A stretch of 64,000 nucleotides of DNA, taken from contig JAZUCF010000024.1 of assembly GCA_045638945.1 (NCBI GenBank), forward strand, positions 25,055-89,054, in the 5' to 3' direction. Position numbers and translations under genes: made by a program. The stretch is from Clostridia bacterium. GTDB lineage: Bacteria > Bacillota > Clostridia > UMGS1883. Shown here in pieces: positions 6,903-59,025 of this stretch; the stretch's first letter is position 1, and each line of letters begins with the position of its first letter. The notes beneath the pieces are model-generated. The model saw nothing but the letters and a program-made list of their open reading frames with translations, had not been told where the DNA came from and ran no database searches.

Positions 6903-6990
6903 TTTTATCTTTCTGGTGCAGGTAACAGGACTTGAACCTGCATGAAATTGCTCTCATACGGACCTGAACCGTACGCGTCTGCCAATTCCG
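6903..6990 (-). tRNA. tRNA-Leu (anticodon CAG)
   Basis: Reverse complement reads GCAGGTA acceptor, D-arm, anticodon stem TACGG/CCGTA with loop TTCAGGT (CAG), long variable arm, T-arm CAGGTTCAAGTCCTG and a 3' CCA encoded; 88 nt. Confidence 0.85.
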
Positions 6991-7091
6991 CCATACCTGC
7001 ATATTTGATACTTTGATATTATACATCATAAATAATTGAAAATCAAGTGTTTTTTGGGAAAATATTTACCTGAAAGAGGGAGTAAAAACAT

Positions 7092-39646: not shown

Positions 39647-40549
39647 TTATTTAAAATATTCTTCTTTCAAATTTACTATGATGGAATCATTTGAATCATA
39701 GAGAGAAATTCCTTTTGGAAGCGACAGCTTTGTTTCAATGTCGCTACCAGCCTCATAGGGAGTAATGTCAAGTGGTTTTGTTTCAATTTGTTCAACCTTG
39801 TCAAGGTCGGATTTTTCACCAAAAATTCTGATGTTTGAGCTTTCGGGAAGCTTATGCTCCGTGCCGCCTTTCAGCTTTAATACCACGGGAACTGTTTTGG
39901 AATTGTAAAAAGAAAAGGAAACTTCAGTTGATGCAGGGATGCATTCTACTCTTTCCAGTACAACTCCGTTTTTATCATAGGCAATAAGCTTTACACTCTG
40001 CTTTCCTTTAGAAGGGGAAATTACCTCTGTTTTTACGGAGTCAACGAGGTTAAGTATGCTTTCTGGTGCTTTCAAAGTAGCTTTTTTATCTGATGCAGTG
40101 TGTGATTTTACTTTAAAATCCGAACCTTCCTTTTGCTCAAATGAGACATCAATATTAAATGATTTTGTTTCTATAGGTTCAATTACCACTGAAATATTTT
40201 TTCCCTTCGCCGTGAAAACGGGATCTGAGGTAACATTTGATGACACTGCAACGTGAACAGAATATTTACCCGGCTTTCTGAAAGAGGAAACGTTTATTAC
40301 GCCGGTGGTGTTCTTGTTGGTAAGTCTTGCCAGTGTCAATCTTTTTGCATTTGCTATTACCGAGATACTGTTGTCGGAAACGGAATAAACTGAAAGTCCG
40401 TTTTCATTAAGTGCCTGTTCTCCCGAGAGCGTAATCGGGACATCATCGATTGTTTTTGTCATGGTGGGGTTTTCCTGATAGGAAACATAAATCCAAAGCA
40501 CCACGGCAAGTAATGTACAAATAATTTTAAGAGCAAGCTTATTTTGCAT
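39647..40549 (-). CDS. cdaR: YbbR-domain protein CdaR (regulator of diadenylate cyclase CdaA)
   Basis: N-terminal TM then YbbR repeats; start ATG at 40549 overlaps the cdaA stop (TAATG). Confidence 0.75.
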   Translation of the reverse strand: MQNKLALKIICTLLAVVLWIYVSYQENPTMTKTIDDVPITLSGEQALNENGLSVYSVSDNSISVIANAKRLTLARLTNKNTTGVINVSSFRKPGKYSVHVAVSSNVTSDPVFTAKGKNISVVIEPIETKSFNIDVSFEQKEGSDFKVKSHTASDKKATLKAPESILNLVDSVKTEVISPSKGKQSVKLIAYDKNGVVLERVECIPASTEVSFSFYNSKTVPVVLKLKGGTEHKLPESSNIRIFGEKSDLDKVEQIETKPLDITPYEAGSDIETKLSLPKGISLYDSNDSIIVNLKEEYFK

Positions 40550-41397
40550 TATTTTTTCCATTTTAAGCGCTCCTTCCACTTTGACAAAGAATTGTCTTTG
40601 TTATCTGAAGAATCGGATGCTAAAACTTTCATAATTACCTTTTTCAAAGAATCTTCAGTATAGTTGCGGCTCATATTTCCGCCCAGTGTAAAACTGATTT
40701 TACCCGTTTCCTCACTGACAACAATAACTGCCGCATCCGAGCTTTCTGAAAGCCCCAGGGCGGCTCTGTGCCTTGTTCCCAGTTCGCGGCTCAATGTTTC
40801 ATTCGGTGTAAGGGGAAGAATACAGCGTGCCGCTATAATTTTATTATCTCTGATTATAACTGCACCGTCGTGCAGAGGTGTGTTTGGAATAAAAATGTTT
40901 ATGAGTAGTTCACTGGAGACATCTGCGTTAAGCTCGCAGCCCGTTCTTACGATATCGCCGATTTTGGTTTCTCTCTCAATTACCATGAGCGCACCTATTC
41001 TTCGGCTGGACATAGCCACGGCGGCAGATGCAATTTCCGAGGCAAGAAGCTCGGTATCATTCTTTTCATCCTGTGTAAACAGGGAGGAGAAGTTTACTCT
41101 GCCCACCTGCTCAAGAGCACGCCTCAGCTCCGGCTGGAAAATTACGATAAAGGCGATAAGTGCAAATTGCATCAGGTTGCGAAGAAGGTAATTTATCGTA
41201 GTGAGTTCAAAAACGTCACTTATCCATGTGAAAATTAAAAGAAGTATAATTCCCTTGATAAGTGTTCCCGCTCTCGTTTCGCGGACCAGAGAAGACAATT
41301 TGTAAAAAACAAATGCGACAATTGCAATATCAATTATATCTGTCAGCCGCAGAAATGATAATGTAAGTGCAATGTCGCTCATCAATGCTTCAAACAA
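40549..41397 (-). CDS. cdaA: Diadenylate cyclase CdaA
   Basis: Three N-terminal TM helices and a DAC domain (DGAVIIRDNKIIAARCILPL, RHRAALGLSE); TTG at 41397 has the best RBS spacing (AAGGTGG + 9 nt), ATG at 41382 is the alternative. Confidence 0.8.
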   Translation of the reverse strand: MFEALMSDIALTLSFLRLTDIIDIAIVAFVFYKLSSLVRETRAGTLIKGIILLLIFTWISDVFELTTINYLLRNLMQFALIAFIVIFQPELRRALEQVGRVNFSSLFTQDEKNDTELLASEIASAAVAMSSRRIGALMVIERETKIGDIVRTGCELNADVSSELLINIFIPNTPLHDGAVIIRDNKIIAARCILPLTPNETLSRELGTRHRAALGLSESSDAAVIVVSEETGKISFTLGGNMSRNYTEDSLKKVIMKVLASDSSDNKDNSLSKWKERLKWKK

Positions 41398-41490
41398 TAA
41401 CTCCAACCACCTTTACGTATAATATAATATTATACAATAAAAATTGGGTTAATGAAAGTATTTTTTTCATAATTTAATTTAATTGTAAAA

Positions 41491-42606
41491 TTACTTTTCC
41501 GATATTATATTTTCAAGCGCCTGTACAGCAGTTGTTATTTCGTCCTTTGTATTAAAATAACCTGCTGAAAACCTGAGAAGTCCGCTTGAAATTGTTCCCA
41601 GAGTCCTGTGTGCCATCGGACAACAATGAAGCCCCGCGCGTGTTGCTATATTATGTTCAAGGTCCAGTCTTCCTGCCACCTCAACGCAATCATGATTTTT
41701 AAGAAGAACCCCCATAACGGCGGTGTCGCTTTTTCCCAATAGCTTTATTCCTTTTACAGTGGAAAGCTGTTCTTTGAAAAATGCACCAAGCTCTGCTTCT
41801 TTCTCAGCGACTCCTTCACGCATTACAAATTTGATACCCTCGCACAGACCTGCAATTGCACATGTATTAATTGTGCCTGCCTCAAAGCGTTCGGGAAGGC
41901 TTTCGGGCATAAAGGCACTTTCGGACAAGCTTCCCGTACCGCCTTCGATTAAAGTGTCAAGCTTTAAACCTTTACGGATGTATAAAACACCTGTGCCAAA
42001 AGGACCGTACAGCCCTTTATGCCCTGCAAATGCAATTAAGTCTCCGCAGGAGGTATCAATGGGCAGTATTCCGCCGCTTTGTGCCGCATCTATCAGAGTA
42101 AGCACATTTTTCTCGCGTGCACGTTTGCAAATCTCTCTTACGGGGTTAACGCTGCCCACAACATTTGAAGCATGAACAATACAAATCAGCTTTGTTTGGG
42201 GAGTAATTGCAGATATAACATCGTCTGCATTAACAATACCCTCATGGTTTGCACGCACAATTTTTACCTTAGCCCCACGCTTTTCCATACTTATGCAGCT
42301 TCTTAAAACACTGTTATGCTCCATGGAAGAAATAATAATTTCATCGCCGCTTTTAATAATCCCCTTAACAGCAAGATTAATTGCTTCGGTGGTGTTTTTT
42401 GTGAAAATTATCTGCTCGGGACTGTCAGCTTTGATGAAATCAGCCATTGTCTCACGGCATTCATAAACCTTTTCAAAGCTTTTCCTTGCAAGATAATGTC
42501 CTCCCCGTCCCGCATTTCCTCCGTAGCTTTTCATGCAATCGGCGACGCAGTCAATCACACTTTGGGGTTTGGGAAAAGTTGTGGCGGCATTGTCAAGATA
42601 AATCAT
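41491..42606 (-). CDS. Cysteine desulfurase family (aminotransferase class V) protein
   Basis: PLP-lysine region AFAGHKGLYGPFGTGVLYI and catalytic-loop Cys near the C-terminus (..GLHCCPMAH). Confidence 0.8.
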   Translation of the reverse strand: MIYLDNAATTFPKPQSVIDCVADCMKSYGGNAGRGGHYLARKSFEKVYECRETMADFIKADSPEQIIFTKNTTEAINLAVKGIIKSGDEIIISSMEHNSVLRSCISMEKRGAKVKIVRANHEGIVNADDVISAITPQTKLICIVHASNVVGSVNPVREICKRAREKNVLTLIDAAQSGGILPIDTSCGDLIAFAGHKGLYGPFGTGVLYIRKGLKLDTLIEGGTGSLSESAFMPESLPERFEAGTINTCAIAGLCEGIKFVMREGVAEKEAELGAFFKEQLSTVKGIKLLGKSDTAVMGVLLKNHDCVEVAGRLDLEHNIATRAGLHCCPMAHRTLGTISSGLLRFSAGYFNTKDEITTAVQALENIISEK

Positions 42607-42617
42607 CGCGTTCCTCC

Positions 42618-42872
42618 TTATTCTACCACTTTTGAATAGGTTTTTTTGCCTTCGGATTCACTTTCATAGTAGAAAGAGCGTATTCTTACACCAAGCTCCT
42701 TGGCGGCATTTAATATTATGTTTTTTGCACTGTCGTCAAAACGCAGACTATATCCACATCCCTCTCTTGCTATTGCCTGCGGCGTCTGAATAACAGAGGA
42801 ATACACCCCGAATTCGTAGGCGTGCCGTTTCAGCCGTGTTGCTGATGTAATTGAAGCCATTGTTGCAAGCAT
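42618..42872 (-). CDS. DUF3343-like small protein (putative S/Se carrier partner of the cysteine desulfurase)
   Basis: 84 aa, immediately upstream of the desulfurase, with a conserved internal Cys (..AIAREGCGYS..). Confidence 0.4.
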   Translation of the reverse strand: MLATMASITSATRLKRHAYEFGVYSSVIQTPQAIAREGCGYSLRFDDSAKNIILNAAKELGVRIRSFYYESESEGKKTYSKVVE

Positions 42873-43068
42873 TGAAATCTCTCCATTCCTTTATTGCACA
42901 TACTTTATTTTATGCTGAACGCACTTCTTTGGTTATAGCGGAAGTATGAATTATTAAAAATGTAACAAATTCGTAAAGAATAACAAAAATATGTTGAAAT
43001 AAAGAAAGAAAAGTGTTATTATAACTATATATGGCTATTTTGTGATTAAAAATTGGGAGGGAATTAAA

Positions 43069-44157
43069 TTGGTTAATAAATACCTAAACAATATCCTTAT
43101 ACAGACAAGCAAAATACTCGGATGCGAGGTTGGCATAATCGAGGGTAACGGAGCTGTGGTTACAGCATCGGGAATTAATGAAATTTCCATGAATGCGTCA
43201 GATGTGATTGATGCCTGCCAGACCTCAGGTTCAAGGTTGTTACAAGCAGGGGGATATACGTTCTTTGCCGTGAGTTCACGTGGACGTGTGGAGTATATCA
43301 CCTTTATTAAAAACGACGATCCCCTTATGGTTAAGCAGGCTGAGCTTCTTTCTTCCTACATCGGAACGCTCAGGCAGATGCATAACGATAAATATGATAA
43401 AACCAACTTTATTAAAAACATGCTTGCAGACAGCGTTCTTCCCGGAGATATTTTCCTAAAGAGCAAGGAGCTGCATCTTGCATTTGATGTTGACAGAGCA
43501 GTGTTTGCCCTTCGTTATGATGAAATCCGCGGAGTGGATGTTTTTGATATCATCAGCAAAATTTTTCCCGATAACGGAAAAGATTTTGTTATAGACCTTG
43601 ATAACAATATGATTGCCATTGTAGCGGAAGTGAAAATGGGAACAACCACTGCAGAGCTTGAAAAGCTCGCTTCCAAAATTGTCGATACGGTTACAAGCGA
43701 GGCGATGGTTGATGTTAATTTAGGCATAGGAACAGTAGCTTCCAGCATAAAGGATATAGCCAAAAGCTATAAAGAGGCGAGAATTGCATTGGAAGTAGGT
43801 AAGGTGTTTGATGGGGACAAGTTTATCATGAACTATGATAATCTCGGAATCGCCCGTCTTATCTATCAGCTTCCCACTACTCTTTGCGAGCTTTTCCTTT
43901 CTGAAGTATTCAAGAAGGATTCCATTGATTCTCTGGATTCGGAAACATTACATACAATACAGAAATTCTTTGAAAACAATCTGAATGTATCCGAAACCTC
44001 CCGTCAGCTTTATGTTCACAGAAACACCCTCGTTTACAGACTTGACAAGGTGAGGAAGATTACAGGTCTTGATTTAAGAATTTTTGACCATGCTATCGTA
44101 TTCAAAGTAGCTCTTATGGTTAAAAAGTATCTGGTATCAAAACCGATGCGTATTTGA
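43069..44157 (+). CDS. PucR/CdaR family transcriptional regulator
   Basis: C-terminal PucR-type HTH (SETSRQLYVHRNTLVYRLDKVRKITGLDLR); TTG start after a GGGAGGG RBS. Confidence 0.75.
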   Translation: MVNKYLNNILIQTSKILGCEVGIIEGNGAVVTASGINEISMNASDVIDACQTSGSRLLQAGGYTFFAVSSRGRVEYITFIKNDDPLMVKQAELLSSYIGTLRQMHNDKYDKTNFIKNMLADSVLPGDIFLKSKELHLAFDVDRAVFALRYDEIRGVDVFDIISKIFPDNGKDFVIDLDNNMIAIVAEVKMGTTTAELEKLASKIVDTVTSEAMVDVNLGIGTVASSIKDIAKSYKEARIALEVGKVFDGDKFIMNYDNLGIARLIYQLPTTLCELFLSEVFKKDSIDSLDSETLHTIQKFFENNLNVSETSRQLYVHRNTLVYRLDKVRKITGLDLRIFDHAIVFKVALMVKKYLVSKPMRI

Positions 44158-44169
44158 TGGAAGGGTGAT

Positions 44170-44859
44170 TTGATGATAGAATTCAAAGAGGTTAGTGTTG
44201 TTTACGACAAAGATATTGTCGGGCTTGACAATGTATCTTTTAAAATAGAAGAGGGGGAATTTGTTTTCCTCGTTGGTAAAACAGGTGCGGGAAAAAGCTC
44301 TGCAATTAAACTGCTCACAGGTGAGATAAAACCCACAAGCGGTGATGTTATAGTAGACGGAATCGTGGTTAACAGGCTTAAAAGAAGAAAAATACCTTAT
44401 TTAAGAAGAGCACAGGGAGTGGTTTTCCAGGATTTCAGACTTCTTCCCAATAAGACCGTGTATGAAAACGTTGCCTTTGCGATGGAAATAACGGGGAAGA
44501 AAAAGAAAGATATTCAGAGAAAAGTTCCCAAGATACTCAGTCTTGTAGGACTTTCCGAGCGTGCAAATAACTATCCCAACGAAATTTCGGGCGGAGAGCA
44601 GCAGCGTGTAAGTATAGCAAGAGCACTTGTGAACAGTCCCTCTCTCATAATTGCGGACGAGCCTACGGGAAATCTTGACGTGGAAACATCTGCCGAGGTT
44701 ATGAATCTTTTTGAAGAAATTAATAAGATGGGCACAACTATTGTTATGGTTACTCATTCCGAAAAAATAGTTAACGATATGCAAAGGCGTGTAATACAGC
44801 TTGAAAACGGTGTGCTAGTACGCGATGAAGAAAACGGGGTGTATAACATTGGTGCTTAG
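44170..44859 (+). CDS. ftsE: Cell-division ATP-binding protein FtsE
   Basis: Walker A GKTGAGKSS, ABC signature LSGGEQQR, Walker B IIADEPTGNLD. Confidence 0.9.
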   Translation: MMIEFKEVSVVYDKDIVGLDNVSFKIEEGEFVFLVGKTGAGKSSAIKLLTGEIKPTSGDVIVDGIVVNRLKRRKIPYLRRAQGVVFQDFRLLPNKTVYENVAFAMEITGKKKKDIQRKVPKILSLVGLSERANNYPNEISGGEQQRVSIARALVNSPSLIIADEPTGNLDVETSAEVMNLFEEINKMGTTIVMVTHSEKIVNDMQRRVIQLENGVLVRDEENGVYNIGA

Positions 44860-45736
44860 AAATTTGAAATACTATATTAAAAGTGCCGCAAGCTCTTTTA
44901 AGAGAAACGGCATTATGACAATCGCATCTTTTATCACTGTTACATGCTGTTTATTCCTTTTTGGTGTGTTTGTGATATTTTCCATGAATATGAACTACAT
45001 AGGAAAGCAGCTTGAACAGCAGTGTGAGCTTCAGGCATATATGTATCTGGAAACCGACGAGCCGCAGCAGCGTGCGGTTTATGAAAAGGTACTGCAGCTT
45101 GATAATGTTTATGATGCAACTCTGGAAACTGAAAGACAGGCTTTTGAAAACTTTAAAAAACAGCTTGGCGAGGACGGTGACCTTTTAGACGGTCTTGAGG
45201 ATAAGGATTTCCTCAGAAGCTCCATAAAGATTACACTTAATGACATCAGAAAATCAAATGATACGAAAAAAGCTGTAGAGAAAATTTCAGGTATTGAAAA
45301 AGTGGAAAATTATCAGGACACTGTGGGAAAGGTTCTCAGTCTTACCGGTGCGGTAAACAAGGGAAGCACAGTGGGTATGATTGTGCTTATGATAATAGCG
45401 GTGTTTATTATCCAGAACACCATCAAGCTCAGCGTTTTCGCACGTGAGAAGGAAATACATATTATGAAATTTGTAGGTGCTACCGACAGATTCATAAGGA
45501 CTCCCTTTGTAATAGAGGGAATTATGATAGGTGCTTTGGGCTTTATTGTGTCGTATACGGTAATACTCTTTAGCTATACTCCTGCAATTAGCACGGTTAA
45601 AGACCTTATAAAAATGTTTGATTTTCTTCCGCTTCAGTCGTGTGCTTTGCAGCTTGGTGTCATGATGGCACTTTTCGGCACAATGATGGGAGCAATAGGC
45701 AGTGCAGTGTCGATAAAGAGACACCTTAAGGTGTGA
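44849..45736 (+). CDS. ftsX: Cell-division permease FtsX
   Basis: N-terminus LVLRNLKYYIKSAASSFKRNGIMT parallels FtsX (..LSRNGWMT..), 4 TM segments; TTG start overlaps the ftsE stop. Confidence 0.85.
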   Translation: MVLRNLKYYIKSAASSFKRNGIMTIASFITVTCCLFLFGVFVIFSMNMNYIGKQLEQQCELQAYMYLETDEPQQRAVYEKVLQLDNVYDATLETERQAFENFKKQLGEDGDLLDGLEDKDFLRSSIKITLNDIRKSNDTKKAVEKISGIEKVENYQDTVGKVLSLTGAVNKGSTVGMIVLMIIAVFIIQNTIKLSVFAREKEIHIMKFVGATDRFIRTPFVIEGIMIGALGFIVSYTVILFSYTPAISTVKDLIKMFDFLPLQSCALQLGVMMALFGTMMGAIGSAVSIKRHLKV

Positions 45737-45768
45737 CGTTTTTACGTAGCAGAAAGGAATTTTACGCT

Positions 45769-46929
45769 ATGAACAAAAGAACAAGGGAAATTTTGAAAAA
45801 AACATTTGCCGCCCTTTGCGCAAGTGTTGTTGTAATAGCTCTTGTAGCTTCGGTGTTTTTGCCCGTGGTAAGAGCCGCAACTCAAAAACAGCTTGATGAT
45901 GCGAAAAATAAAACACAGCAGGCAAAGACTGCCGCACAGAAAGCAGAAGCTGAGAAAAAGGCGGCTATCAACTCATATAATGCACTTGATGCACAGATAC
46001 AAAGTACAGAAAATGAGATTGATACTCTTGAAAAACAAATAGAGCAGACTAAAAAGGACATAGAGCTTAAAGAAGAAGAGCTAAAACTTGCCGAGGAGCA
46101 ACTTGAAAGCCACGAAAAGGCTTTTATGGCACGGGCAGGAGCTATGTATGAGCATAACGACATAAAATATGTCGAATTACTCTTTAAGGCTGACAGTTTA
46201 AGTGATTTTCTCACCAAAATAGACATGATTACGCAAATTATGGAATATGATGATAAGGTTCTGACGGATTTAAAAGAAACCCGTGAGAAAATTAACCTTG
46301 CCAAAAAACAGCTTGAGGACATTCTTGTAAGACAAGAGGAGGATTCAAAGAAGCTTGAAACTAAAAGGGCGTCGCTTTCTCTTGCCTTGGCAGAAAAAGA
46401 AAAACTGATGAAGGAAGCCATCAGGAATGCAGACAGATATAAGGCTATATATGAAGCCGCAGAACAGGCAGAACAGGCATTAATCAGAGAAAACAGAAAC
46501 GCATTTTCTCAAAGCGGATATAATGTTAAATATACCGGCGGAAGATTTGCATGGCCGGTTCCGGGAAGCCATAGAATTACCAGCCAGTACGGCGAGAGAA
46601 TACACCCCGTATATAAGACCCGTAAGTTCCATTCGGGAATTGATATTGGTGCAGGCTACGGACTTGACATAATCGCCGCTGCGGATGGTAAGGTAACTCT
46701 TGCCACAACCAACGGAGGCTACGGCAAATGCGTAGTTATCAACCACGGAAGCGGAATAACTACGCTTTATGGGCATTGCAGCACTATGCTTGTTTCCGCA
46801 GGCGATACTGTAACCAAGGGTCAGGTAATTGCTAAAGTAGGCTCTACAGGAGTTTCTACGGGTCCTCATCTTCATTTTGAAGTTCGTATAAACGGTGCAA
46901 CCACAAACCCCTTAAACTATCTTTCATAA
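45769..46929 (+). CDS. Coiled-coil M23 family metallopeptidase (EnvC/PcsB-like FtsEX-coupled hydrolase or activator)
   Basis: Signal/TM, long coiled-coil region, C-terminal LytM/M23 domain with HSGIDIGA and HLHFEV. Confidence 0.85.
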   Translation: MNKRTREILKKTFAALCASVVVIALVASVFLPVVRAATQKQLDDAKNKTQQAKTAAQKAEAEKKAAINSYNALDAQIQSTENEIDTLEKQIEQTKKDIELKEEELKLAEEQLESHEKAFMARAGAMYEHNDIKYVELLFKADSLSDFLTKIDMITQIMEYDDKVLTDLKETREKINLAKKQLEDILVRQEEDSKKLETKRASLSLALAEKEKLMKEAIRNADRYKAIYEAAEQAEQALIRENRNAFSQSGYNVKYTGGRFAWPVPGSHRITSQYGERIHPVYKTRKFHSGIDIGAGYGLDIIAAADGKVTLATTNGGYGKCVVINHGSGITTLYGHCSTMLVSAGDTVTKGQVIAKVGSTGVSTGPHLHFEVRINGATTNPLNYLS

Positions 46930-46943
46930 AGGGAGTCTTTCAG

Positions 46944-48098
46944 GTGAATAAAATCTCAAAGAAGACACTATTTACCATTTTAATTACTTTTGCAGTGACG
47001 TATCTTCTTACAAGTGCGTTTCGTCCGCAATTTGCTGATTTTAAACGTCTTGAACGCATTATGCAGATTATAGACGAGCAGTATGTGGGTGATTACAGCC
47101 GCGAGAAATGCGAAGAAGCGGCAATAAATGCAGTGCTTGGAAGCATAGACGATAAGTATGCGGTTTATTATGATGAGGAAAATGCAAAAGAAACCATGCA
47201 GAATATCGAGGGATACTACTACGGCATAGGAGTAGAGGTGTTTGCAAATACACAAAAGAACGCTATTGAGATTCTCTCGGTGCATGCATCTTCTCCTGCG
47301 GAAAAGGCGGGAATAATGCAAGGCGATTTGCTGCTTTCAATAGATGGTAAGGATTATGGTGCCGATGGGCTTGCTGATGCGGTAAGCTATATAAAAGGTG
47401 ACGGAACGAAAGCTTCTCTGGGTAAGACTATTGATATTGTACTTAGTCGTGGCAGTGAGAAAATTCCTGTTACGCTTAAGCGTGCAAAGCTCGGTTTATA
47501 TGCAGTCAAAAGCGAAATGCTTGATGATATTTGCTATATACGCTATGACGGGTTTACCCAGAAGTCCCTCAGTGATTTTAAGAAAATTGTAAATTCCCTT
47601 GATGAGAAAAAGGTTAAGGGTCTTGTAATTGATATAAGATACAATCCAGGAGGGGAGTTTTCAAGCGTTATTGAAATGTGCGACCTTTTCCTGGACGAAG
47701 AGCCGATAATGTACACTATTGACAAAAAAGGTGATAAAACCGTGTACACAGGTACAAAAGGAAAAAAATCTTTTCCCATGGCAGTTATAGTAAGCGGTTC
47801 ATCGGCAAGTGCCTCGGAGGTTTTTGCAGGTGCTATGCAGGCTAATAAGCGTGCTGTAATAATAGGGGAGGAGACCTTTGGGAAAGGTGTTACCCAGTCA
47901 GTTATGTATCTTGACAGGGTTGATAAATCCATGGGTGCAGTTAAATTAACAACCTACAAAAACTATACACCCGACGGCAGATGGATTAACGAAAAGATTA
48001 TTCCCGATATAAAGGTGGAAATTGATAAAATTGGCTCAAATATCAGGGAAGATGCCGCTTTTAAAGCTGCTGTAGATTATTTTAACAAGGAAAATTAG
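46944..48098 (+). CDS. ctpA: S41 family C-terminal processing peptidase
   Basis: PDZ domain plus catalytic region GSSASASEVFAGAMQ .. TFGKG (Ser/Lys dyad). Confidence 0.85.
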   Translation: MNKISKKTLFTILITFAVTYLLTSAFRPQFADFKRLERIMQIIDEQYVGDYSREKCEEAAINAVLGSIDDKYAVYYDEENAKETMQNIEGYYYGIGVEVFANTQKNAIEILSVHASSPAEKAGIMQGDLLLSIDGKDYGADGLADAVSYIKGDGTKASLGKTIDIVLSRGSEKIPVTLKRAKLGLYAVKSEMLDDICYIRYDGFTQKSLSDFKKIVNSLDEKKVKGLVIDIRYNPGGEFSSVIEMCDLFLDEEPIMYTIDKKGDKTVYTGTKGKKSFPMAVIVSGSSASASEVFAGAMQANKRAVIIGEETFGKGVTQSVMYLDRVDKSMGAVKLTTYKNYTPDGRWINEKIIPDIKVEIDKIGSNIREDAAFKAAVDYFNKEN

Positions 48099-48102
48099 TA
48101 AA

Positions 48103-49485
48103 ATGAAAAAGCATCAAAGAATTACAAGTCTAATAATTATTTTGATACTCTTGTGTTCGTTTTCCTGCACTTCATATGCTGAAAATGAAAATAAAAAAGT
48201 GAATAATTCTTCTGAAACCTCGCAGGAGACCCCTGAAAAAAATACAATTGAGGCAAAGTCGCCCCATGCCGTTTTGATGGACTTAAAAACAGGTTCGATT
48301 ATATATGAGAAAAATTCCAGTGATGCGGTTTATCCCGCGGGGTTAACTAATATAATGACCGCAGTCCTTGTCCTTGAAAACTCTAATATGGAGGAGCTTG
48401 CCACTGCAAGCGAAACGGCTCTTTCCAATGTCTTGCCCGGGGACAACAAAATGGGTATTTTAAAGGAAGAGAAGCTGTCGGTGCGTCAGCTTGTTTACGG
48501 GATGCTTTTAGAGTCTGCCTCCGATGCAGCAAACGTTCTTGCAGAAAAAACAGCAGGCAGTATAGAAGCCTTTGTAAATATGATGAATGCCAGAGCCAAG
48601 GAGCTTGGCATGGAGAAAACAAGCTTCACCAATCCTGCGGGAAACCATGATGACAGACATTATACAACTCCAATGGATATGGCGATTTTAGCAAAGCACG
48701 CTATGTCAATCCCTGAGTTTTGCGATATTGTAAAATGTGATTCCTACACTATTCCTCCAACGGAAAAGAATCCCAATTCAAGAAAGCTTACAAACAGAAA
48801 TCATCTTGTAAGCAGACTTATACGAAATGATTATTATTACGCAAATGCCACAGGGCTTAAAACAGGCTACAGTGCAGAAGCAAAGAGCTGTGTGGCGGCA
48901 TCGGCACAAAAAGGCTCAATGTCACTTTTAGCGTTGGTTTTTGAAGCCGACACAAGCAATAATGTACTGCAAAGCTATGATGACTGCAGAAAGATGTTTG
49001 ATTTTGTGTTTTCAAATTATGTGTCGCAAACTATTGTCAGCGAGGGAGATATAGTAGCACAAACCAATATTATAAATACAAGGCGTGACAATAAAATTAT
49101 TTTAACGGCAGAGAGACCATTATCCGTTATTCGTGAAAAAGATTCCGAGCCTGTGGAGGTCACATATAAGGATTTCGTGAAAAAATCCGTAAGTGCTCCC
49201 GTGAAAAAAGGTGAAAAAATCGGAACGAGAGAGTATTTTGTAAACGGGCAGTCTATAGGAACGCTAAATCTTTTAGCAGAGAAAAATTATAAGCTCGACC
49301 CCGTGACATTCTTTATAAATAAGCTTAAGGCATTTTTTACTTCGCCATGGCTTTATGCGGTCATAGTTTTATTGATAATATTCTTTATTTTAGCGGAAAG
49401 AAGACGAAGAAGAATCCTCCGCAAAAAACGGCGTGACGCCCGCAAAAAAAGAAATCTGGAACTGATTCACAGTATAGACAGCTAA
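48103..49485 (+). CDS. PBP5/D-Ala-D-Ala carboxypeptidase (S11) homolog with degenerate active-site motifs (predicted inactive)
   Basis: Signal peptide; S11 fold. SxxK reads PAGLTNIMT (Ser->Gly, Lys->Asn), SxN reads ESASD (Asn->Ser), KTG retained (LKTGYS). C-terminal TM plus polybasic tail. Confidence 0.7.
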   Translation: MKKHQRITSLIIILILLCSFSCTSYAENENKKVNNSSETSQETPEKNTIEAKSPHAVLMDLKTGSIIYEKNSSDAVYPAGLTNIMTAVLVLENSNMEELATASETALSNVLPGDNKMGILKEEKLSVRQLVYGMLLESASDAANVLAEKTAGSIEAFVNMMNARAKELGMEKTSFTNPAGNHDDRHYTTPMDMAILAKHAMSIPEFCDIVKCDSYTIPPTEKNPNSRKLTNRNHLVSRLIRNDYYYANATGLKTGYSAEAKSCVAASAQKGSMSLLALVFEADTSNNVLQSYDDCRKMFDFVFSNYVSQTIVSEGDIVAQTNIINTRRDNKIILTAERPLSVIREKDSEPVEVTYKDFVKKSVSAPVKKGEKIGTREYFVNGQSIGTLNLLAEKNYKLDPVTFFINKLKAFFTSPWLYAVIVLLIIFFILAERRRRRILRKKRRDARKKRNLELIHSIDS

Positions 49486-49520
49486 CAAAAAACGGCTCAA
49501 TCGAGCCGTTTTTTGTTAGC
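49481..49520. repeat. 40-bp perfect palindrome/terminator; left boundary repeat of the low-GC cassette
   Basis: GCTAACAAAAAACGGCTC-aatc-GAGCCGTTTTTTGTTAGC; its 30-nt core is repeated at 53667-53701. Confidence 0.7.
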
Positions 49521-49546: not shown

Positions 49547-50461
49547 TCATATTTTTTCGGCAGAAATCATAGCTCCGTTAAGCATATCAATTTTTATAAT
49601 AAAATGCTCTTTAGCTGTCCGGCAAATTATAGCAAAGTACCTACCGTCAAATAACGGAGTGTGCTCAATATAATCATAAGAATTATATAAATCCGGAGCT
49701 TTTTGAGAGCCTAAAGTTGTAATCCCTAAAGAATATAATTCATTTTTCAAATTAAATCTTACTTCTGATTCTTCGCTTTTATAAACAAAATCCACGACCT
49801 CTCCGAATGTCGTTCCGGGGTATTGAATATAAAAGTTTTTGCCATATAAGAATTTGCCTTTTATACCACCATGAGGAGAAGTACTCCAAAGAGCCATATA
49901 ATCGAGCTTGGGGCGAACAGCTTTTTCGGTGTTTATCACATATACTTTTCCATCAAAAAAATACTCCCAATCTAATAATTTTACCGCAATATCCCATACC
50001 AAAGGAATATATGTTACACCACGGAAATTGACAACGGGATATCTCTTTTCACTATTATACTTTTGGTTTTGAATGTATACATCATATTGAACAGTATATG
50101 TTTTATGAAAATCTCCGGAAACATTTTGTTGATTTGAAACAACCTCTGAAAAGTTTTCCTCTCTCTGGTCACTTTTTCCGACATAAAAAAGATAGGGAGA
50201 GTTTTCATTATATCCTTTTTTTCCATAATGCGTTTCCAGTCCTGCGAAGTTGCACATATTATGTGTCAATGGAAAATATAATATATTATTATACTCTAAA
50301 AATGGATATTCTCTATAGGTATTTTCTATAATTTGTCCGTTTACTTTAATTTCATATTTAGGAACAGATACATTTAAAGTTTTCGCACTGACTTTCATTC
50401 CTAGGAACAAGGTAATGAATGTGGAAATTATTATAAAAATTGATTTTTTCACTTTTTTCAC
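49547..50461 (-). CDS. Secreted protein of unknown function
   Basis: Signal peptide MKKVKKSIFIIISTFITLFLGMKVSA; no recognisable domain; low GC. Confidence 0.5.
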   Translation of the reverse strand: MKKVKKSIFIIISTFITLFLGMKVSAKTLNVSVPKYEIKVNGQIIENTYREYPFLEYNNILYFPLTHNMCNFAGLETHYGKKGYNENSPYLFYVGKSDQREENFSEVVSNQQNVSGDFHKTYTVQYDVYIQNQKYNSEKRYPVVNFRGVTYIPLVWDIAVKLLDWEYFFDGKVYVINTEKAVRPKLDYMALWSTSPHGGIKGKFLYGKNFYIQYPGTTFGEVVDFVYKSEESEVRFNLKNELYSLGITTLGSQKAPDLYNSYDYIEHTPLFDGRYFAIICRTAKEHFIIKIDMLNGAMISAEKI

Positions 50462-50467
50462 TCCTGT

Positions 50468-51622
50468 TTAAGGCATTTGCTGAAAATATATAGATATGTT
50501 TTCTTCATGCCAGTTGGTACCACTATTTTTTATTACCTGCCTTGCATTATCTGAATTTGTTCCAAAAGCTCCGCAACGATCCGGTTCATAGTTGTTTCCG
50601 CTTATATGTTCGCCGTCAGCACAATTTTCGGGTAACATTTTAGTGGTTATTCCGTTTGGTGTTGAATATATGTAAGAATTATCAAAGGCAGCATTCAATA
50701 AACGTGTTCCCGTCAAATAATTATGGTTGGAATTGCACAATGTAATTTGCTTGTTGAATGATGTGTTTGTATCGTAAATTCCATAGCTTCCCACATGAAA
50801 ATGATAGTCTACAAATACTCTATCAAAATTTGTTCCATCAACTATTTTAAAGCTCATAAATCCGGGGTTTTCTGACAAATGTTCAACCCTAAAATATAAC
50901 CTATTTGTGTCAATATATATATCATCGAAAGGCTCATACATGTCCTCTTCAAGAACAAATTCAGGGTCTGTTCTTAATTGAAAAACTCTCCACCTAACAA
51001 GCCCATCTCCACCAAGTTCATACGCAACTCCAAAATCCATATAAAAATCTTGTACCCCAGGATAAGAAGCCGATGTATCAATAGTATAAAACATGTAACC
51101 AGCGGTATCATTAGTTTTGTTTTGAATTGTGGGCAAGGTAACAAAAGTAGTTGCTCCGGAATATTCAGACAAAGACATAACCTCCCAGCCTATCCCTTCA
51201 TCACCTGGTCGGTTAATCGCCCTGCTTGAACTGTTTTCACTGCTGATTGCAAGCTTTTTATTACGATTATCTTCAATAATGGGGACTGTTGACATGGATG
51301 CTTTAATATAGTTTTTTACTTGTTCTTTGCTGAATCCATATGTTTCTGCATCCCTTTTAATAGATTTTATAATATCCTTGTAAGCTCCTTTTGCAGACAT
51401 TCCATTATTTTCATATTCCTTTTGAACGAAAGATGACATTTCTATCTCTTCTAAGTCTATTTCATTGTTTTTCAAAAACGTTACAGTTTCAGTTCCCAAC
51501 AGAGTTGTTTTTTCTTTTGCAGAAAAAACAGATAAATCCTTTTCTATACCTTCATCTGCATTTGCGATGCTTATGCTTGATAACATAAAAATCGTTACGA
51601 AAAAAAATAATTTCTTTTTCAT
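50468..51622 (-). CDS. Secreted protein of unknown function
   Basis: Signal peptide MKKKLFFFVTIFMLSSISIANA; 384 aa; no recognisable domain; low GC. Confidence 0.5.
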   Translation of the reverse strand: MKKKLFFFVTIFMLSSISIANADEGIEKDLSVFSAKEKTTLLGTETVTFLKNNEIDLEEIEMSSFVQKEYENNGMSAKGAYKDIIKSIKRDAETYGFSKEQVKNYIKASMSTVPIIEDNRNKKLAISSENSSSRAINRPGDEGIGWEVMSLSEYSGATTFVTLPTIQNKTNDTAGYMFYTIDTSASYPGVQDFYMDFGVAYELGGDGLVRWRVFQLRTDPEFVLEEDMYEPFDDIYIDTNRLYFRVEHLSENPGFMSFKIVDGTNFDRVFVDYHFHVGSYGIYDTNTSFNKQITLCNSNHNYLTGTRLLNAAFDNSYIYSTPNGITTKMLPENCADGEHISGNNYEPDRCGAFGTNSDNARQVIKNSGTNWHEENISIYFQQMP

Positions 51623-51752
51623 GACATTTTTTCTCCTTTACTTTATCATAAAATTTTGTTTTTTTCAACTGCTTTACAGTTGTTTTTGACGTTTGTCCGT
51701 TTTTTCATATGTAGTCCAACGGAATCACCTCGCATATAGGTAAAGAACAAAA

Positions 51753-52202
51753 TTAATAATTAATTACATCACTGTATTTGGTTATTGTCTCAATCAAGTT
51801 GCCGCTGCTGTCATACGCTTTGTGAGTAAGCTTTAGACGATAGGAATAGCCTTTTGCAACGGCGTATTTTTCATCTACAAATGCATTGGAGCCTCCTTTA
51901 TCGCTCCAGGTTTTAATTGAACTCCAACTACTTCCTTTTTGCTGTAATGCAACTGATACATATGCGGTATATCCTACAGGTACATTTGTTTCTCCGTAGC
52001 ACTCAAATATTCCTCCGGATTTAAGTACGAAATCGTTTTCGGTGGAGGTAATAATAATATTTGCAGGTGCTACAATACTTGCATTACTTACCGGAGTAGC
52101 AGCAAAGGTGTTTAAAGCAGTTATTGACATTGATGCACAGCCTACTGTTGCAACAATAAGGGAAGTAATGCGTTTAACATAGTTTTTGTTTGATTTTTTC
52201 AT
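51753..52202 (-). CDS. Small secreted protein of unknown function
   Basis: Signal peptide ..ATVGCASMSITALNTFAA; 149 aa. Confidence 0.45.
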   Translation of the reverse strand: MKKSNKNYVKRITSLIVATVGCASMSITALNTFAATPVSNASIVAPANIIITSTENDFVLKSGGIFECYGETNVPVGYTAYVSVALQQKGSSWSSIKTWSDKGGSNAFVDEKYAVAKGYSYRLKLTHKAYDSSGNLIETITKYSDVINY

Positions 52203-54656: not shown

Positions 54657-55238
54657 TTCACAAACTTCATAAATGGCTTCCCAGATATCCTCGCTTCCCA
54701 TACCCGTTTCCGCACTGAATGGCATCATAATGTCATCATCCTCAAGCTCGAGGGTATAGTAAATTTCATCAAGATGATCATTTAGCTTTGTTTTCGGTAT
54801 CTTGTCGCACTTGGTTGCAACCACAAAGGCGAAGCCGTGCCTTTCGCGAATATAATTAAGCATAATCAAATCGTCATTGGTAGGCTTGTGCCTTGCATCA
54901 ACAAGAAGCACTGTGCAGGCAAGGGTTTCACGGCAGTCAAGATATGTTTCAATCATATTGCCCCATTTTTTCTTTTCATCCTTGCTTACCTTTGCATAAC
55001 CGTAGCCGGGTAAATCGACGAAATTTAATGTGTCGTCAATATTGTAGAAATTAATCGTCGCAGTCTTTCCGGGCTTTGAACTGGTTCTTGCAAGGCTTTT
55101 GCGGTTAAGCATCTTGTTAATAAATGAACTTTTTCCCACATTGCTTCGCCCTGCAAATGCAATATCGGGAAAGGGTGTATCGGGATATTGCTTAGGCGAA
55201 ACGGCGGATATTGTAAGGCTTACATTATGAATATTCAT
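54645..55238 (-). CDS. engB: Ribosome biogenesis GTP-binding protein YihA/EngB
   Basis: G1 [10 protein letters not shown]3 DLPGYG, G4 TKCDK. Confidence 0.9.
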
Positions 55239-57606
55239 GCAGCGTGCTCCTTTCTTTTCTCAGCGGGGGAGGAGTTTGCCCTGCCTTTTTGGTATCGGTT
55301 TTGTTAAGCAGTGCAAGCTTTAAAACCTCATCACAGCTTTTAACGGGCACAAAGTTAATTTCACTGCGGATGTGCGGGGGAATTTCTTCAAGGTCTTTGA
55401 TATTCTCATACGGAATAACTATATTTGTAATTTTATTTCTGTATGCCGCAAGGGCTTTTTCCTTAAGTCCGCCGATGGGGAGAACTCTTCCTGTAAGGGA
55501 TATTTCACCTGTCATGGCAATATCACTGCGTACAGGAACTGAGGAAAGGGTACTTGCCACGGCAGTTGCTATTGTGATGCCTGCACTGGGACCGTCCTTA
55601 GGAACTGCTCCCTCTGGGAAATGGATATGTATATCCCTTTTCTCATAAAAGTCAGACTGTATACCGAGAGTGTCAGAAATGGAGCGGATGAAAGAAACCG
55701 CCGCCTGAACTGACTCTTTCATAACATCTCCAAGCTTGCCTGTAATCTGAATTTTTCCGCTTCCGGGAAGAGAAATTGCCTCACACTGAAGTATTTCACC
55801 GCCCACCTGCGTCCATGCAAGTCCGTTAACCACACCTATAGCGGGTTTTGTATCTACTGCATTTTCTACATATTTTTTCTCACCGATAAAATCGGAGAGA
55901 TTCTTTTCGGTGACAGATACGCAGATATCTTTCTTTGTTTGTGCCATGATAGCTTTTCTGCAAATTTTTTCTATTTCACGCTCAAGCTTTCTTACACCCG
56001 ATTCCTTTGTGTAGCACGCAATTATAGTTTTTATTGCCTTATCGGAAACCTTAAGGTCTTTTTTATCAAGGCAGTGCCTCTGCATCTGTTTTGGGAATAG
56101 GTGCAGCTTTGCTATGTTGTACTTTTCATCATCAGTATAGCTTGAAAGCTCCAGTACCTCCATCCTGTCAAGAAGCGGACGGGGGATTGTAGAGGTATCG
56201 TTGGCAGTTGCTATGAAAAGCACCTTTGATAAATCAAGCCCAAGCTCAAGATAGTTATCTCTGAATGAAGAATTTTGCTCCCTGTCGAGGATTTCCAGCA
56301 GGGCAGAGGAGGGGTCTCCCTTGTAATCTGAACCGACCTTGTCAATTTCATCAAGAAGAATCAGGGGGTTTGCGGATTTTGCTTTTTTAAGAGCATTTAC
56401 AATTCTTCCGGGCATTGCTCCCACATAGGTCTTTCTGTGTCCGCGAAGCTCGGATTCATCCTTCATTCCGCCAAGACTGATTCGTACATAATTTCTTCCC
56501 GTAGCTTCTGCAATAGACTTTGCAATTGAAGTTTTTCCCACACCGGGCGCTCCGTGAAGGCAAAGTATACTTCCCGTGGGGTTCTGTGTGCGGTTTATAA
56601 CTGCGAGCTGTTCAAGGACTCTTTCCTTTACCTTTTCCATTCCGTAATGGTCACGCTCAAGGATTTTCCTTGCACAGTCAAGGTCTTTATTTTCTTCAGT
56701 ATAGGTTTCCCACGGAAGGTCGCAGATAAGATCTAAATAATTTCTTGAAATACTGCTTTCGGGAGATGTCGGGGGGAGCTTTTCATAGTTATTAAGCTCA
56801 CGCATTGCTTTTTGATACACTTCTTCAGGGAGCGGTGTGCTTTCAATCCTGTTTCTGAGTTCCAGAAACTCATCTTCTTTATCATCACCAAGCTCTTCCT
56901 TTATTGCACGAAGCTGTTCACGAAGATAATACTCATGATTATGGTCATCCATCTGCTGTTTAACCTTTGCGGCAATAATGCTTTCAACATCAAGGATTTT
57001 AACCTCTTTTGTCATAACGTCAATGAGCTTTAAAAGCCTCTTTTTGACATTTGTGGTTTGAAGAAGCTCCTGTTTATCCTCATTGCCACGCAAAAGATTA
57101 AAAGCAATGGTATCGCAAAAATCCGACGGGTTTGTTTCGGGTAAATCCTTTATAAAGCTTTCGGTAGAAAGCTTGGGATTAAGCTCGATATAATCATTAA
57201 TAAGGTAGTGTATCTGATTAAGGAAAGCGGAATATTCTTCCACGGATAAATCCCTGTCGGAAGAATTTTTATACACAATTTCACCCTCGTAAAGATTCTC
57301 GCAGACAAAGGCACCGCTCAGCTTTCCGCGTGATTCTCCCTCGACAAGTATTCGAAGACAACCGTCGGGAAGCTTTAGAATTTGTTTTATTTTAGCAATC
57401 ATACCAAAGGAGTTTACATCACTTTCGGTGGGCTCTTCGATTGCATCATTTTTCTGTGATGCAAGGAATATAAGTCCGTTTGATGCAACTGCTTTGAGCA
57501 CTGCATTTTTGCTTTTTTCCCTTGCCACGTCAAAGTGAAACACCGTTTTAGGAAAAATCACAAATCCGCGTACGGGAATAATGGGTAATATTTCTTTTTT
57601 TGCCAT
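55225..57606 (-). CDS. lon: ATP-dependent Lon protease (LonA)
   Basis: LON N-domain, AAA+ Walker [10 protein letters not shown], protease domain with catalytic Ser in [10 protein letters not shown]. Confidence 0.95.
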
Positions 57607-57618
57607 GATATTTTGTCC

Positions 57619-59025
57619 TTACTTAATTGTTTTAATATAGTTTTCGTAATCGGTTGTATGCTCAACCTTTGCGTTTTTAATTATTGTGTTGATTTCCTCC
57701 TGTGCGGCATTCTGTGCCAGAATACTCATCCAATAATTTTTTGCAGCGGTAAGCTCTTTCTCGCTTAAGGGAAGTCGCATAATTATATGATAACCGTAAT
57801 CAGTTTTAATTGGTGCTTTTGTAAGTTCGTTTTCTTTTAATGCAAACGCCGCCTTTTCAAAAGGCTCCACCATTTCCCCTTTGGTAAAGGTATACCCCTC
57901 CTCGGTAGAACCGGGGTCAATGTTATGCTCTTTCATAAGCGTGTCAAAGCTTTCGCCCTTTTTAATGCGGGAAATAAGCTCCTTCGCAAGTGCTTCATCC
58001 TCTACAAGAATATGCTTTGCAGTGATATAACTTGTACGGAACATATTTTCGTATTCGGAAACGTCATAATCCCTCTTTGCCGCATCCTCCTGAATAGTCT
58101 GAGCTGTTATCATATAAATCAGGAATTTGTTTGCAAAATCCTGAAAATCTTCCTTGCTTATAATCCCTACCTCAATAGCTTTATCGGCATTGTACTGCAT
58201 GGTTAGTTCCTGCTCTATATAACCAAGCAGTTCACCGGAGATTTTTGTAAATTCCTCATCAAATGTCAAGTTAATTTTCTCCGCATGGGCACACAGAGCG
58301 TAAATCTGCATAATGGTATTTTCAATTTCGGAAGTAAGAAGCTGTGCGGCAGGCACAGAATCAATGGTAAGGGTTTGCAGTGTGCCGCCCGCAGTGTAAT
58401 TATCGCAAGTCTCTTTCATGAATTCATCCGTTGTGAAATTATAAAGGAGCATATTGAAAAGACCGGCGTTTACCGCTTGTGAGTCAACTTTAATCAATGC
58501 TTTGTCGGAAAAACCTTTTAACGTGTCAAGGTCAACCTTATAAAAATCCCCTGTTATATAAATTGTTTTTGTTTCGCTGTCCCAATCAATTTTTCTGCCC
58601 AGAGCCTCGGTAATTGCACGAACGGGAACATAGGTAGTGCCGTCAATAAGGAACGGATTCACAACTTTTCCGTTCACGTCCTTAGGCTCTATTAAAGTGC
58701 CGTTTATTACAATCCTTATAACCTCGGAGCTTTCAAATGCAGTTGATGTCTTTTCTCCGATATAGACAATGCGGCTATGTCCGTCCCATTCTACTTTCTG
58801 TCCCAGTGCCTCAGACACGGCACGTGCGGGAAGATAAGTGGTGCCCTCCAAAAGAAACGGAGGTACGATTTTACCGTTGACGTCTTTAGGGGTAAGCTTT
58901 TCACCGTCAATAACAATCTGAATATCCGCATTGTTATTTTCGGGGATTGCAGTATCTTCAGCAAAAACGGCAGATGTAAAAAACATGGTTAAGCATGTAA
59001 CTAACGCTATCAATTTCTTTATCAT
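57619..59025 (-). CDS. Secreted parvulin-type peptidyl-prolyl isomerase (PrsA-like) with two N-terminal copper-amine-oxidase-N-like domains
   Basis: Signal peptide; repeats TTYLPARAVSEALGQKVEWD and TTYVPVRAITEALGRKIDWD; C-terminal PpiC domain (ITAKHILV..GYHIIMRL). Confidence 0.75.
   Translation of the reverse strand: MIKKLIALVTCLTMFFTSAVFAEDTAIPENNNADIQIVIDGEKLTPKDVNGKIVPPFLLEGTTYLPARAVSEALGQKVEWDGHSRIVYIGEKTSTAFESSEVIRIVINGTLIEPKDVNGKVVNPFLIDGTTYVPVRAITEALGRKIDWDSETKTIYITGDFYKVDLDTLKGFSDKALIKVDSQAVNAGLFNMLLYNFTTDEFMKETCDNYTAGGTLQTLTIDSVPAAQLLTSEIENTIMQIYALCAHAEKINLTFDEEFTKISGELLGYIEQELTMQYNADKAIEVGIISKEDFQDFANKFLIYMITAQTIQEDAAKRDYDVSEYENMFRTSYITAKHILVEDEALAKELISRIKKGESFDTLMKEHNIDPGSTEEGYTFTKGEMVEPFEKAAFALKENELTKAPIKTDYGYHIIMRLPLSEKELTAAKNYWMSILAQNAAQEEINTIIKNAKVEHTTDYENYIKTIK

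Follow-up and report, generated by a model that had tools for sequence, protein, structure and literature searches.

A conserved S11 carboxypeptidase homologue lacking its catalytic residues, encoded in a Clostridial ftsEX operon

Control of cell wall hydrolases by dead homologues is established for LytM/M23 proteins (EnvC, NlpD, DipM). Dead LytM factors regulate autolysins, with DipM also binding the DD-carboxypeptidase CrbA (PMC10336132), and EnvC and LdpF act with FtsEX (PMC10336132, PMC7668044). In B. subtilis, FtsEX–CwlO needs two extra cofactors, SweC and SweD (PMC6705773), and in the LbcA–CtpA and NlpI–Prc systems an S41 protease and its dedicated partner control wall hydrolases that include the M23 protein MepM (PMC6050968, PMC8764530, PMC11021448). 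P. aeruginosa MipB, which has a beta-lactamase/penicillin-binding protein (PBP) fold without SXXK and with degenerate motifs 2 and 3, plays a non-catalytic part in an envelope-sensing complex (PMC10936184). For PBP5-type carboxypeptidases (MEROPS family S11), control by dead homologues is undescribed in the literature searched. Here, we describe a PBP5-type protein of 460 amino acids, referred to below as the pseudo-PBP, that is encoded in a 64,000-nucleotide stretch of a Clostridia genome (assembly GCA_045638945.1, contig JAZUCF010000024.1, positions 25,055 to 89,054; this whole stretch is called the window) downstream of ftsE, ftsX and genes for a PcsB-like M23 hydrolase and a CtpA-like S41 protease. 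It is very probably a conserved S11 homologue that is catalytically dead and linked to the ftsEX operon.

Homology to the S11 family is clear from Pfam, where both Peptidase_S11 (PF00768, residues 43–284, E 4.4e-50, 170.8 bits against a cutoff of 27.6) and PBP5_C (PF07943, residues 308–396, E 7e-11, 42.6 bits against 21.2) score above their curated thresholds. When all PDB chains are searched with phmmer, the best match is B. subtilis DacB (3mfd, 1.3e-39), followed by PBP5/6 chains from Vibrio, Haemophilus, E. coli and Pseudomonas. An AlphaFold2 (AF2) model built on 70 homologues has a mean predicted local distance difference test score (pLDDT) of 92.8, with only the post-signal linker (residues 26–43) disordered; residues 306–392, in the PBP5_C region, are all-beta, and the top Foldseek matches of the model in the PDB are PBP5, PBP6 and DacB, each with a probability of 1.00. 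A first-pass annotation of this DNA had proposed that the protein keeps its signal peptide and membrane anchor, and both are evident in the sequence and in the AF2 secondary structure. The signal peptide, MKKHQRITSLIIILILLCSFSCTSYA, ends in SYA, and reading of the sequence finds no lipobox. On these predictions the pseudo-PBP is most likely a correctly folded, secreted S11 protein that is anchored in the membrane at its C-terminus.

Each of the three S11 catalytic motifs can be placed in this protein. In phmmer alignments against chains of solved PBPs, the query segment PAGLTNIMTA falls on ASITKIMTA or PASLTKMMT, LLESASDAA falls on MLRSGNDAA and GLKTGYS falls on GGKTGYT. Against DacB (3mfd), A79-G-L-T-N83 is paired with SITK, S138-A-S-D with SGND and K253-T-G-Y with KTGY, and the Vibrio and Haemophilus PBP5 proteins give the identical register. 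The initial assignment, in which the Ser and Lys of SxxK are replaced, SxN reads SAS and KTG alone is intact, is therefore confirmed by the alignment register and by the codons. An alignment shift restoring SxxK elsewhere was also looked for and none was found: a search for S..K over all 460 residues returns a single match, S267-AQK, which we rejected as a relocated nucleophile because it lies on the strand that follows KTG and occurs in canonical relatives too, as SAKK. Checked in relatives, the substitutions prove to be common property, GLTN/GITN and SAS/SDS recurring in four independent metagenome-assembled genomes (MAGs) at 92% identity and in protein P0001, and so are not sequencing errors. 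The substituted positions are invariant in canonical relatives (25/25 proteins and 115/115 canonical loci). With the nucleophilic Ser, the general-base Lys and the SxN Asn all gone, formation of an acyl-enzyme should no longer be possible, and the pseudo-PBP is predicted to be unable to use the serine acyl-enzyme mechanism. The equivalent nucleophile substitution in E. coli PBP5, S44G, leaves that enzyme inactive both in vitro and in vivo (PMC2909392). Matches to the NCBIfam DacA, DacC, DacD, strep PBP3, staph PBP4 and VanY-D equivalogs, seven in all, fall far under their cutoffs, the top score being that of strep_PBP3, 139 bits where the cutoff is 490. Because SxxK and SxN fail and every named NCBIfam cutoff is missed, filing this S11 protein as a D,D-carboxypeptidase is unfitting.

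A database search for orthologues returned about 87 clusters at ≥50% identity, beyond which identity drops sharply to ≤42%. Across 87 orthologues the catalytic positions vary widely. The Ser of SxxK is represented by Gly in 26, Ala in 20, Asp in 19, Ser in 15, Thr in four, Asn in two and Glu in one, and the Lys of SxxK by Asn in 35, Lys in 35, Thr in nine, Glu in three, His in two and Gly, Ser and Arg in one each. At the Asn of SxN, Ser (60) and Ala (23) predominate, with Val in two, Thr and Pro in one each and Asn in none. The corresponding residues in canonical relatives are Ser, Lys and Asn in 25/25. The remaining motif residues are largely kept: the SxN Ser in 86 of the 87 and the Lys, Thr and Gly of KTG in 78, 82 and 86, the KTG Lys thus being substituted in 9/87 (canonical relatives, Lys in 25/25). 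R227 and N233 are also retained. Mean column identity over 35 diverse orthologues is 63%. The canonical relatives have 54 positions with conservation of 90% or more, 44 of which are conserved to 80% or more in the orthologues; the ten that are lost include all three catalytic residues.

Other residues are invariant specifically in this clade. They comprise Q320, R327, R328, K331, D357, R376, Y396 and D399 in PBP5_C, N406, F411 and P415 near the membrane and, in the tail, E432, R433–436, R440, R443 and R450, which are invariant or nearly so; none lies in the old active site. In the closest genomes, which are uncultured Clostridia MAGs from the guts of ruminants and other animals, the protein is 92% identical at the amino acid level. 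Against four such relatives, the ratio of nonsynonymous to synonymous substitution (dN/dS) of the pseudo-PBP gene is 0.076–0.107 at dS 0.40–0.56, which is indistinguishable from that of the adjacent ctpA gene (0.086–0.102), the M23 gene being modestly lower at about 0.05. Every relative has the open reading frame (ORF) intact and at full length. The catalytic residues have been lost, whilst purifying selection acts on the fold and on the other conserved positions: selection no longer holds the catalytic residues in the window's lineage, but the rest of the protein is strongly constrained. The view of the first-pass annotation that this is a catalytically dead pseudo-PBP is supported, at the level of sequence, by the Gly at the nucleophile position, the loss of Lys and Asn, their drift amid purifying selection and the retention of the fold.

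The partners of the protein provide an internal control for this drift, being encoded in the same operon loci. The HxxxD/H/HxH zinc-binding and catalytic residues of the M23 protein are invariant in 13 related loci, and the catalytic Ser (SASASE) and Lys/Gln (FGKGVTQ) of CtpA are intact here and invariant in 12. The M23 partner is thus probably an active hydrolase, as predicted from these residues. Pfam finds Peptidase_S41, PDZ and CtpB_N-like domains in the CtpA-like protein.

How closely the pseudo-PBP is tied to this operon was assessed by classing all S11 genes in 144 loci by motif state and by the presence of ftsX and an M23 gene within 3.5 kb upstream. A metagenome scan gave two more orthologue loci (L062 and L063), its other loci being canonical controls. 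In all 15 evaluable loci with ftsX and M23 directly upstream, the S11 protein lacks the SxN Asn; five have lost Ser, Lys and Asn, one keeps only Lys, two keep only Ser and seven keep Ser and Lys. This arrangement is found upstream of none of the 75 evaluable canonical Ser/Lys/Asn S11 loci, and ctpA is present in all loci whose S11 protein is without Ser or Lys. The pseudo-PBP is genetically tied, and specifically so, to ftsEX and its hydrolase. In the window, the ctpA stop and the pseudo-PBP start are 4 bp apart, and the two genes overlap in L054 and L143; such short gaps (≤4 bp) and overlaps suggest translational coupling. The initial proposal that the pseudo-PBP gene closes the operon is borne out by the 4-bp gap after ctpA, by a terminator hairpin and by the convergent orientation of the next gene. 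The rest of that operon description is also right, the gene order being kept in every orthologue locus examined, with one refinement: the M23 protein carries a PcsB-like coiled coil but, unlike EnvC, has its M23 catalytic residues intact.

The history of the catalytic loss can be read from relatives within and around the clade. In a neighbour-joining tree, members with SLTK (together with SAA) are basal in the orthologue clade and forms lacking Ser or Lys are derived, with differing replacements. A sister family (P0088 and P0121–P0166), 42–46% identical to the window protein, has STTK, SAG and KTG in 46/46, and the order pucR-ftsE-ftsX-M23(-S41)-S11 also surrounds sister-family genes at L059, L142 and L143. 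A further group (P0167–P0171) has STVK/SAA/K[A/S]G and the same gene order at L144. The gene for CtpA is absent altogether from the sister ftsEX-M23 operons at L059 and L142 and present in some other sister operons. Judged by their motifs, the sister S11 clades probably still comprise acylating enzymes. Since these lineages, in the operon, strictly keep SxxK and KTG, the ancestor of the operon S11 protein was probably active, and it would be in the window's lineage that the operon-embedded enzyme lost catalysis. The simplest history would have three steps. An S11 protein would first have joined the ftsEX-M23 operon; the SxN Asn would have been lost early, with acyl-enzyme formation probably kept in several lineages; and the window's lineage would then have lost selection on Ser and Lys, though not on the remaining protein.

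Two observations on neighbouring S11 clades may be added. The sister S11 proteins at L059, L142, L143 and L144 (P0088, P0146, P0165 and P0167, respectively) have long, conserved, charged cytoplasmic tails, such as RQYNYNKRRK...EAEKRR...DFLNK. Separately, a second clade without the nucleophile (P0090–P0099) has GLTN or GTSN, SNN (with the Asn kept) and KSG; one member, P0091 (L056/L057, 8001–9524), adjoins a GerMN ('Germane') domain protein and a two-component system. Although the GLTN string is common to both, we set this clade apart from the window clade, as it is not part of an ftsEX operon, and it is apparently an independent lineage of pseudo-PBP5 proteins in Clostridia.

What might a dead carboxypeptidase homologue do in such an operon? 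The pseudo-PBP is folded, under selection and co-transcribed with FtsEX, the M23 hydrolase and CtpA. From the gene context and the pattern of conservation we propose, tentatively, that it is a non-catalytic accessory subunit of an FtsEX-M23(-CtpA) hydrolase module. Translated together with FtsEX, the M23 hydrolase of PcsB type and CtpA, it would serve the septal hydrolase module as a scaffold or regulator, roles already suggested in the first-pass annotation, and would do so at the membrane's outer face. Candidate interaction surfaces are the patches conserved on PBP5_C, on the juxtamembrane helix and in the Arg-rich cytoplasmic tail. A prior structural role in a complex could have permitted catalysis to be lost without loss of function. 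The partnership with FtsEX, M23 and CtpA, and the direction of any regulation, are what we infer here. Three precedents support the logic of an accessory subunit of this kind, namely the dead LytM factors, SweC/SweD and MipB.

A more specific form of this proposal is that FtsEX, an active M23 hydrolase, CtpA and the pseudo-PBP make up a division machine of four parts, with the dead PBP as its dedicated transmembrane subunit for coupling, in which the ectodomain gates M23, or its destruction by CtpA, and the Arg-rich tail reports to, or is controlled by, FtsE or the divisome. We regard this as distinctly unlikely. Were it true, the pseudo-PBP would be the first low-molecular-weight PBP turned regulatory subunit, and the machine a Gram-positive counterpart of the proteobacterial systems in which adaptors control carboxyl-terminal processing proteases (CTPs).

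Several points weigh against an accessory subunit that is dead and specific to ftsEX. The loci counted above share phylogenetic ancestry, some (L054/L055) being near-duplicates, and all carriers of the pseudo-PBP are uncultured MAGs. Operon membership denotes co-expression, not complex formation. Death is lineage-specific and not clade-wide, and the basal orthologues with SLTK and KTG (9/87) might bind penicillin or keep some activity. There are, moreover, S11 lineages with SMTK, SGA or SAA, and KTG outside ftsEX operons (L044, L046, L049–L051 and L124–L127), so that loss of the Asn alone is not diagnostic of inactivity; judging from their motifs, several Clostridial S11 groups can do without the SxN Asn or have replaced it. 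In the active Streptomyces K15 enzyme the SxN motif reads SGC. In the Foldseek list of PDB matches this enzyme appears only as C98 mutants.

Of the alternatives to an accessory subunit, the one that survives best, though we consider it unlikely, is that the pseudo-PBP is a non-covalent 'reader' of peptidoglycan whose disabled pocket binds D-Ala-D-Ala or pentapeptide stems, and which targets or licenses FtsEX-M23 at the nascent, pentapeptide-rich septal wall or shields the stems there. This is compatible with an accessory role, although the function would then reside in the old active site. Non-catalytic residues of the pocket and fold are indeed kept (the SxN Ser, KTG, R227, N233 and the 44 canonical-conserved positions), and wild-type PBP5 reaches sites of ongoing synthesis via its substrate (PMC2909392). 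In the same study, however, PBP5 carrying the same substitution as the window protein, S44G, lost its septal localisation and seemingly had a reduced affinity for the septal substrate. The centre of the pocket, furthermore, varies freely among the orthologues, with acidic residues at the Ser position (Asp or Glu) and also at the Lys position (Glu), making a conserved ligand geometry unlikely, and even the Lys of KTG is not immune to replacement.

A second alternative, which we find decidedly doubtful, looks to the adjacent protease: the pseudo-PBP would be an adaptor or regulator of the S41 enzyme, in the manner of LbcA–CtpA or NlpI–Prc, that recruits CtpA to the membrane and presents M23 or other wall hydrolases for degradation, or else inhibits CtpA. 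The near-contiguity of the two genes, and the presence of ctpA at every locus with a Ser- or Lys-less S11 protein, fit such a role, as do the observations that CTPs often need partners and that their known substrates include the M23 endopeptidase MepM (PMC6050968, PMC8764530). Against this, the pseudo-PBP has no similarity to tetratricopeptide repeat (TPR) lipoproteins, Pfam giving only S11, PBP5_C and Beta-lactamase2 and the lipobox check being negative; the sister operons at L059 and L142 have no ctpA, so that S11 membership of the operon is independent of ctpA; and the C-terminus of the pseudo-PBP is predicted to be cytoplasmic, so that the protein itself would be no CtpA substrate.

It is very improbable that the pseudo-PBP is still an enzyme, using a non-canonical nucleophile or mechanism such as another Ser or Thr or an activated water. 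Sequence-predicted pseudoenzymes sometimes have migrated catalytic residues (PMC10211241), and the SxN Ser and KTG are retained in our protein, but the sole S-x-x-K is the S267-AQK of the beta-strand after KTG discussed above, the seven different residues found at the nucleophile position point to no consistent replacement chemistry, and PBP5 S44G is inactive. That the gene was inactivated recently and is being lost, or that the finding is an artefact of assembly or sequencing, might be suspected from the missing catalytic residues of an organism known from metagenome assemblies only, but is effectively refuted by a dN/dS of about 0.1, ORFs intact in relatives, some 85 orthologue clusters, the same substitutions in independent assemblies and a confidently predicted fold.

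The features of the pseudo-PBP gene, its operon and the adjoining divergent genes are collected in Table 1. The terminator that follows the pseudo-PBP gene was not listed by the automated scan but was seen on reading the sequence and confirmed by folding. At the other end of the cluster, a PucR/CdaR-type regulator gene lies upstream of ftsE in all related loci (51–97% identity), which suggests that a regulator of this family belongs to, or controls, the ftsEX-hydrolase operon; its NCBIfam match to the sporulation activator AdeR is weak and far under cutoff.

Table 1. Features of the ftsEX–S11 operon and its divergent neighbours (positions counted from the first nucleotide of the window)
Feature	Position	Strand	Basis or remark
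PucR/CdaR-type regulator, GGDEF_2 + HTH_30; first gene of conserved cluster, 12 bp upstream of ftsE	43042..44157	+	Pfam
ftsE, ABC ATPase	44170..44859	+	NCBIfam TIGR02673 FtsE, 286.8 bits, cutoff 264.85
ftsX, extracellular and permease domains; overlaps ftsE	44825..45736	+	FtsX_Gpos 263.7 bits, cutoff 225; Pfam FtsX_ECD, FtsX
PcsB-type coiled coil and M23 peptidase; HSGID, YGH and HLH intact	45733..46929	+	Pfam CC_PcsB, Peptidase_M23
S41 C-terminal processing protease, CtpA/CtpB-like; N-terminal anchor, PDZ, S41	46944..48098	+	TIGR00225 prc 250 bits, cutoff 218.6; Pfam
Pseudo-PBP gene, S11/PBP5-type homologue that lacks the catalytic Ser, Lys and Asn; 460 aa, ATG start	48103..49485	+	ORF list, Pfam, phmmer, AF2
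Signal peptide (predicted), residues 1–26, ...SYA/EN (cleavage at the slash)	48103..48180	+	Sequence reading; AF2 helix 2–20, then low-pLDDT linker 26–43
Degenerate SxxK, G80-L-T-N83, codons GGG TTA ACT AAT	48340..48351	+	phmmer register, codons
Degenerate SxN, S138-A-S140; S140 codon TCC	48514..48522	+	phmmer register, codons
Intact KTG, K253-T-G255, codons AAA-ACA-GGC	48859..48867	+	phmmer register, codons
PBP5_C beta-sandwich domain, residues 308–396; carries clade-specific invariant residues	49024..49290	+	Pfam; conservation contrast
C-terminal hydrophobic membrane anchor (predicted), residues ~411–431, FFTSPWLYAVIVLLIIFFILA	49333..49395	+	Sequence; AF2 helices 400–413, 415–459
Arg-rich tail, conserved, predicted cytoplasmic, ERRRRRILRKKRRDARKKRN..., 14 K/R in 29 residues	49396..49482	+	Sequence, conservation
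Bidirectional intrinsic terminator, perfect 16-bp hairpin with A-tract and T-tract flanks, common to convergent gene	49483..49518	.	Free energy (dG) -23 kcal/mol, z -9.3
Se/S-carrier-like protein	42618-42872	-	Block divergent from ftsEX cluster
Class-V aminotransferase or cysteine-desulfurase-like protein	41491-42606	-	Block divergent from ftsEX cluster
c-di-AMP cyclase CdaA	40549-41406	-	Block divergent from ftsEX cluster
YbbR/CdaR	39647-40579	-	Block divergent from ftsEX cluster

The four minus-strand genes divergent from the ftsEX cluster span 39647–42872, and the synteny of this CdaA block with the ftsEX operon recurs in L054, L058 and L142; the wall-hydrolase operon and the c-di-AMP synthase are stable neighbours in the window's lineage. 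On the other side, an AT-rich minus-strand block (49547–52202, GC 0.335 compared with about 0.41 elsewhere) encodes three predicted secreted proteins of 304, 384 and 149 amino acids, none of which has a Pfam match. Distant homologues of these (28–40% identity) are found at this position only in one close relative (L003), and the block may be a variable surface-protein island. Further along the same strand are genes for a Lon protease (55225–57606) and a PrsA-like peptidyl-prolyl isomerase with copper-amine-oxidase N-terminal-like repeats (57619–59025), the latter architecture also being present near the operon in L054. A single tRNA (6917–7000, minus strand) is the only Rfam match in the window.

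A dead PBP5-type protein encoded in an ftsEX operon was not described anywhere in the literature that we searched, a search that was not exhaustive, and an FtsEX review makes no mention of carboxypeptidases, CTPs or Clostridia. Both the family of the pseudo-PBP and its type of operon are well known; the protein itself is a pseudoenzyme derived from that family. Public records label its orthologues 'D-alanyl-D-alanine carboxypeptidase' or 'serine hydrolase', labels that are almost certainly wrong for the window's lineage. The locus also suggests that Clostridial FtsEX-hydrolase modules have more components than the FtsEX-PcsB and FtsEX-CwlO paradigms. Within one type of operon there is a natural series in which SxxK is kept, only its Lys is lost or all is lost, and this makes a non-catalytic role for an operon-embedded DD-carboxypeptidase directly testable.

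Set beside known systems, the pseudo-PBP most closely resembles the PBP5-type low-molecular-weight PBPs (E. coli DacA/PBP5 and PBP6, B. subtilis DacB (PBP5*) and S. pneumoniae PBP3), with which it shares the S11 and PBP5_C domains, a signal peptide, a C-terminal anchor, KTG and the SxN Ser. It differs from them in having Gly, Asn and Ser in place of the catalytic Ser, Lys and Asn, in having as anchor not only an amphipathic helix but a true hydrophobic one, with a conserved Arg-rich cytoplasmic tail after it, and in the location of its gene inside an ftsEX operon, unlike all 75 canonical S11 loci examined. The sister S11 clades share with it the gene order, the loss of the SxN Asn and a C-terminal transmembrane segment with a conserved cytoplasmic tail, but they keep SxxK and the Lys and Gly of KTG without exception.

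EnvC, NlpD, DipM and LdpF embody the same logic, that of a wall-enzyme fold with a degenerate site kept as a regulator of division hydrolases; in those proteins, however, the fold is M23, whereas in the window operon the M23 protein looks intact and it is the carboxypeptidase homologue, of S11 fold, that is dead. SweC/SweD and, in the Corynebacterineae, SteA/SteB (with RipC-FtsEX) are extra membrane proteins that Gram-positive bacteria require in addition to FtsEX and its hydrolase (PMC6705773, PMC6705760) and offer a precedent for an additional operon-encoded accessory subunit, although, unlike the pseudo-PBP, they are not enzyme-derived, and no kinship with it in sequence or fold is expected. 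With LbcA–CtpA and NlpI–Prc the likeness lies in gene content, the S41 gene here sitting between those for M23 and the pseudo-PBP, but LbcA and NlpI are TPR outer-membrane lipoproteins of Gram-negative bacteria and the pseudo-PBP has an S11 fold and a C-terminal transmembrane anchor. MipB, finally, is an AmpC-like (class C) lipoprotein with extra beta-barrel domains that serves in polymyxin sensing and not in division.

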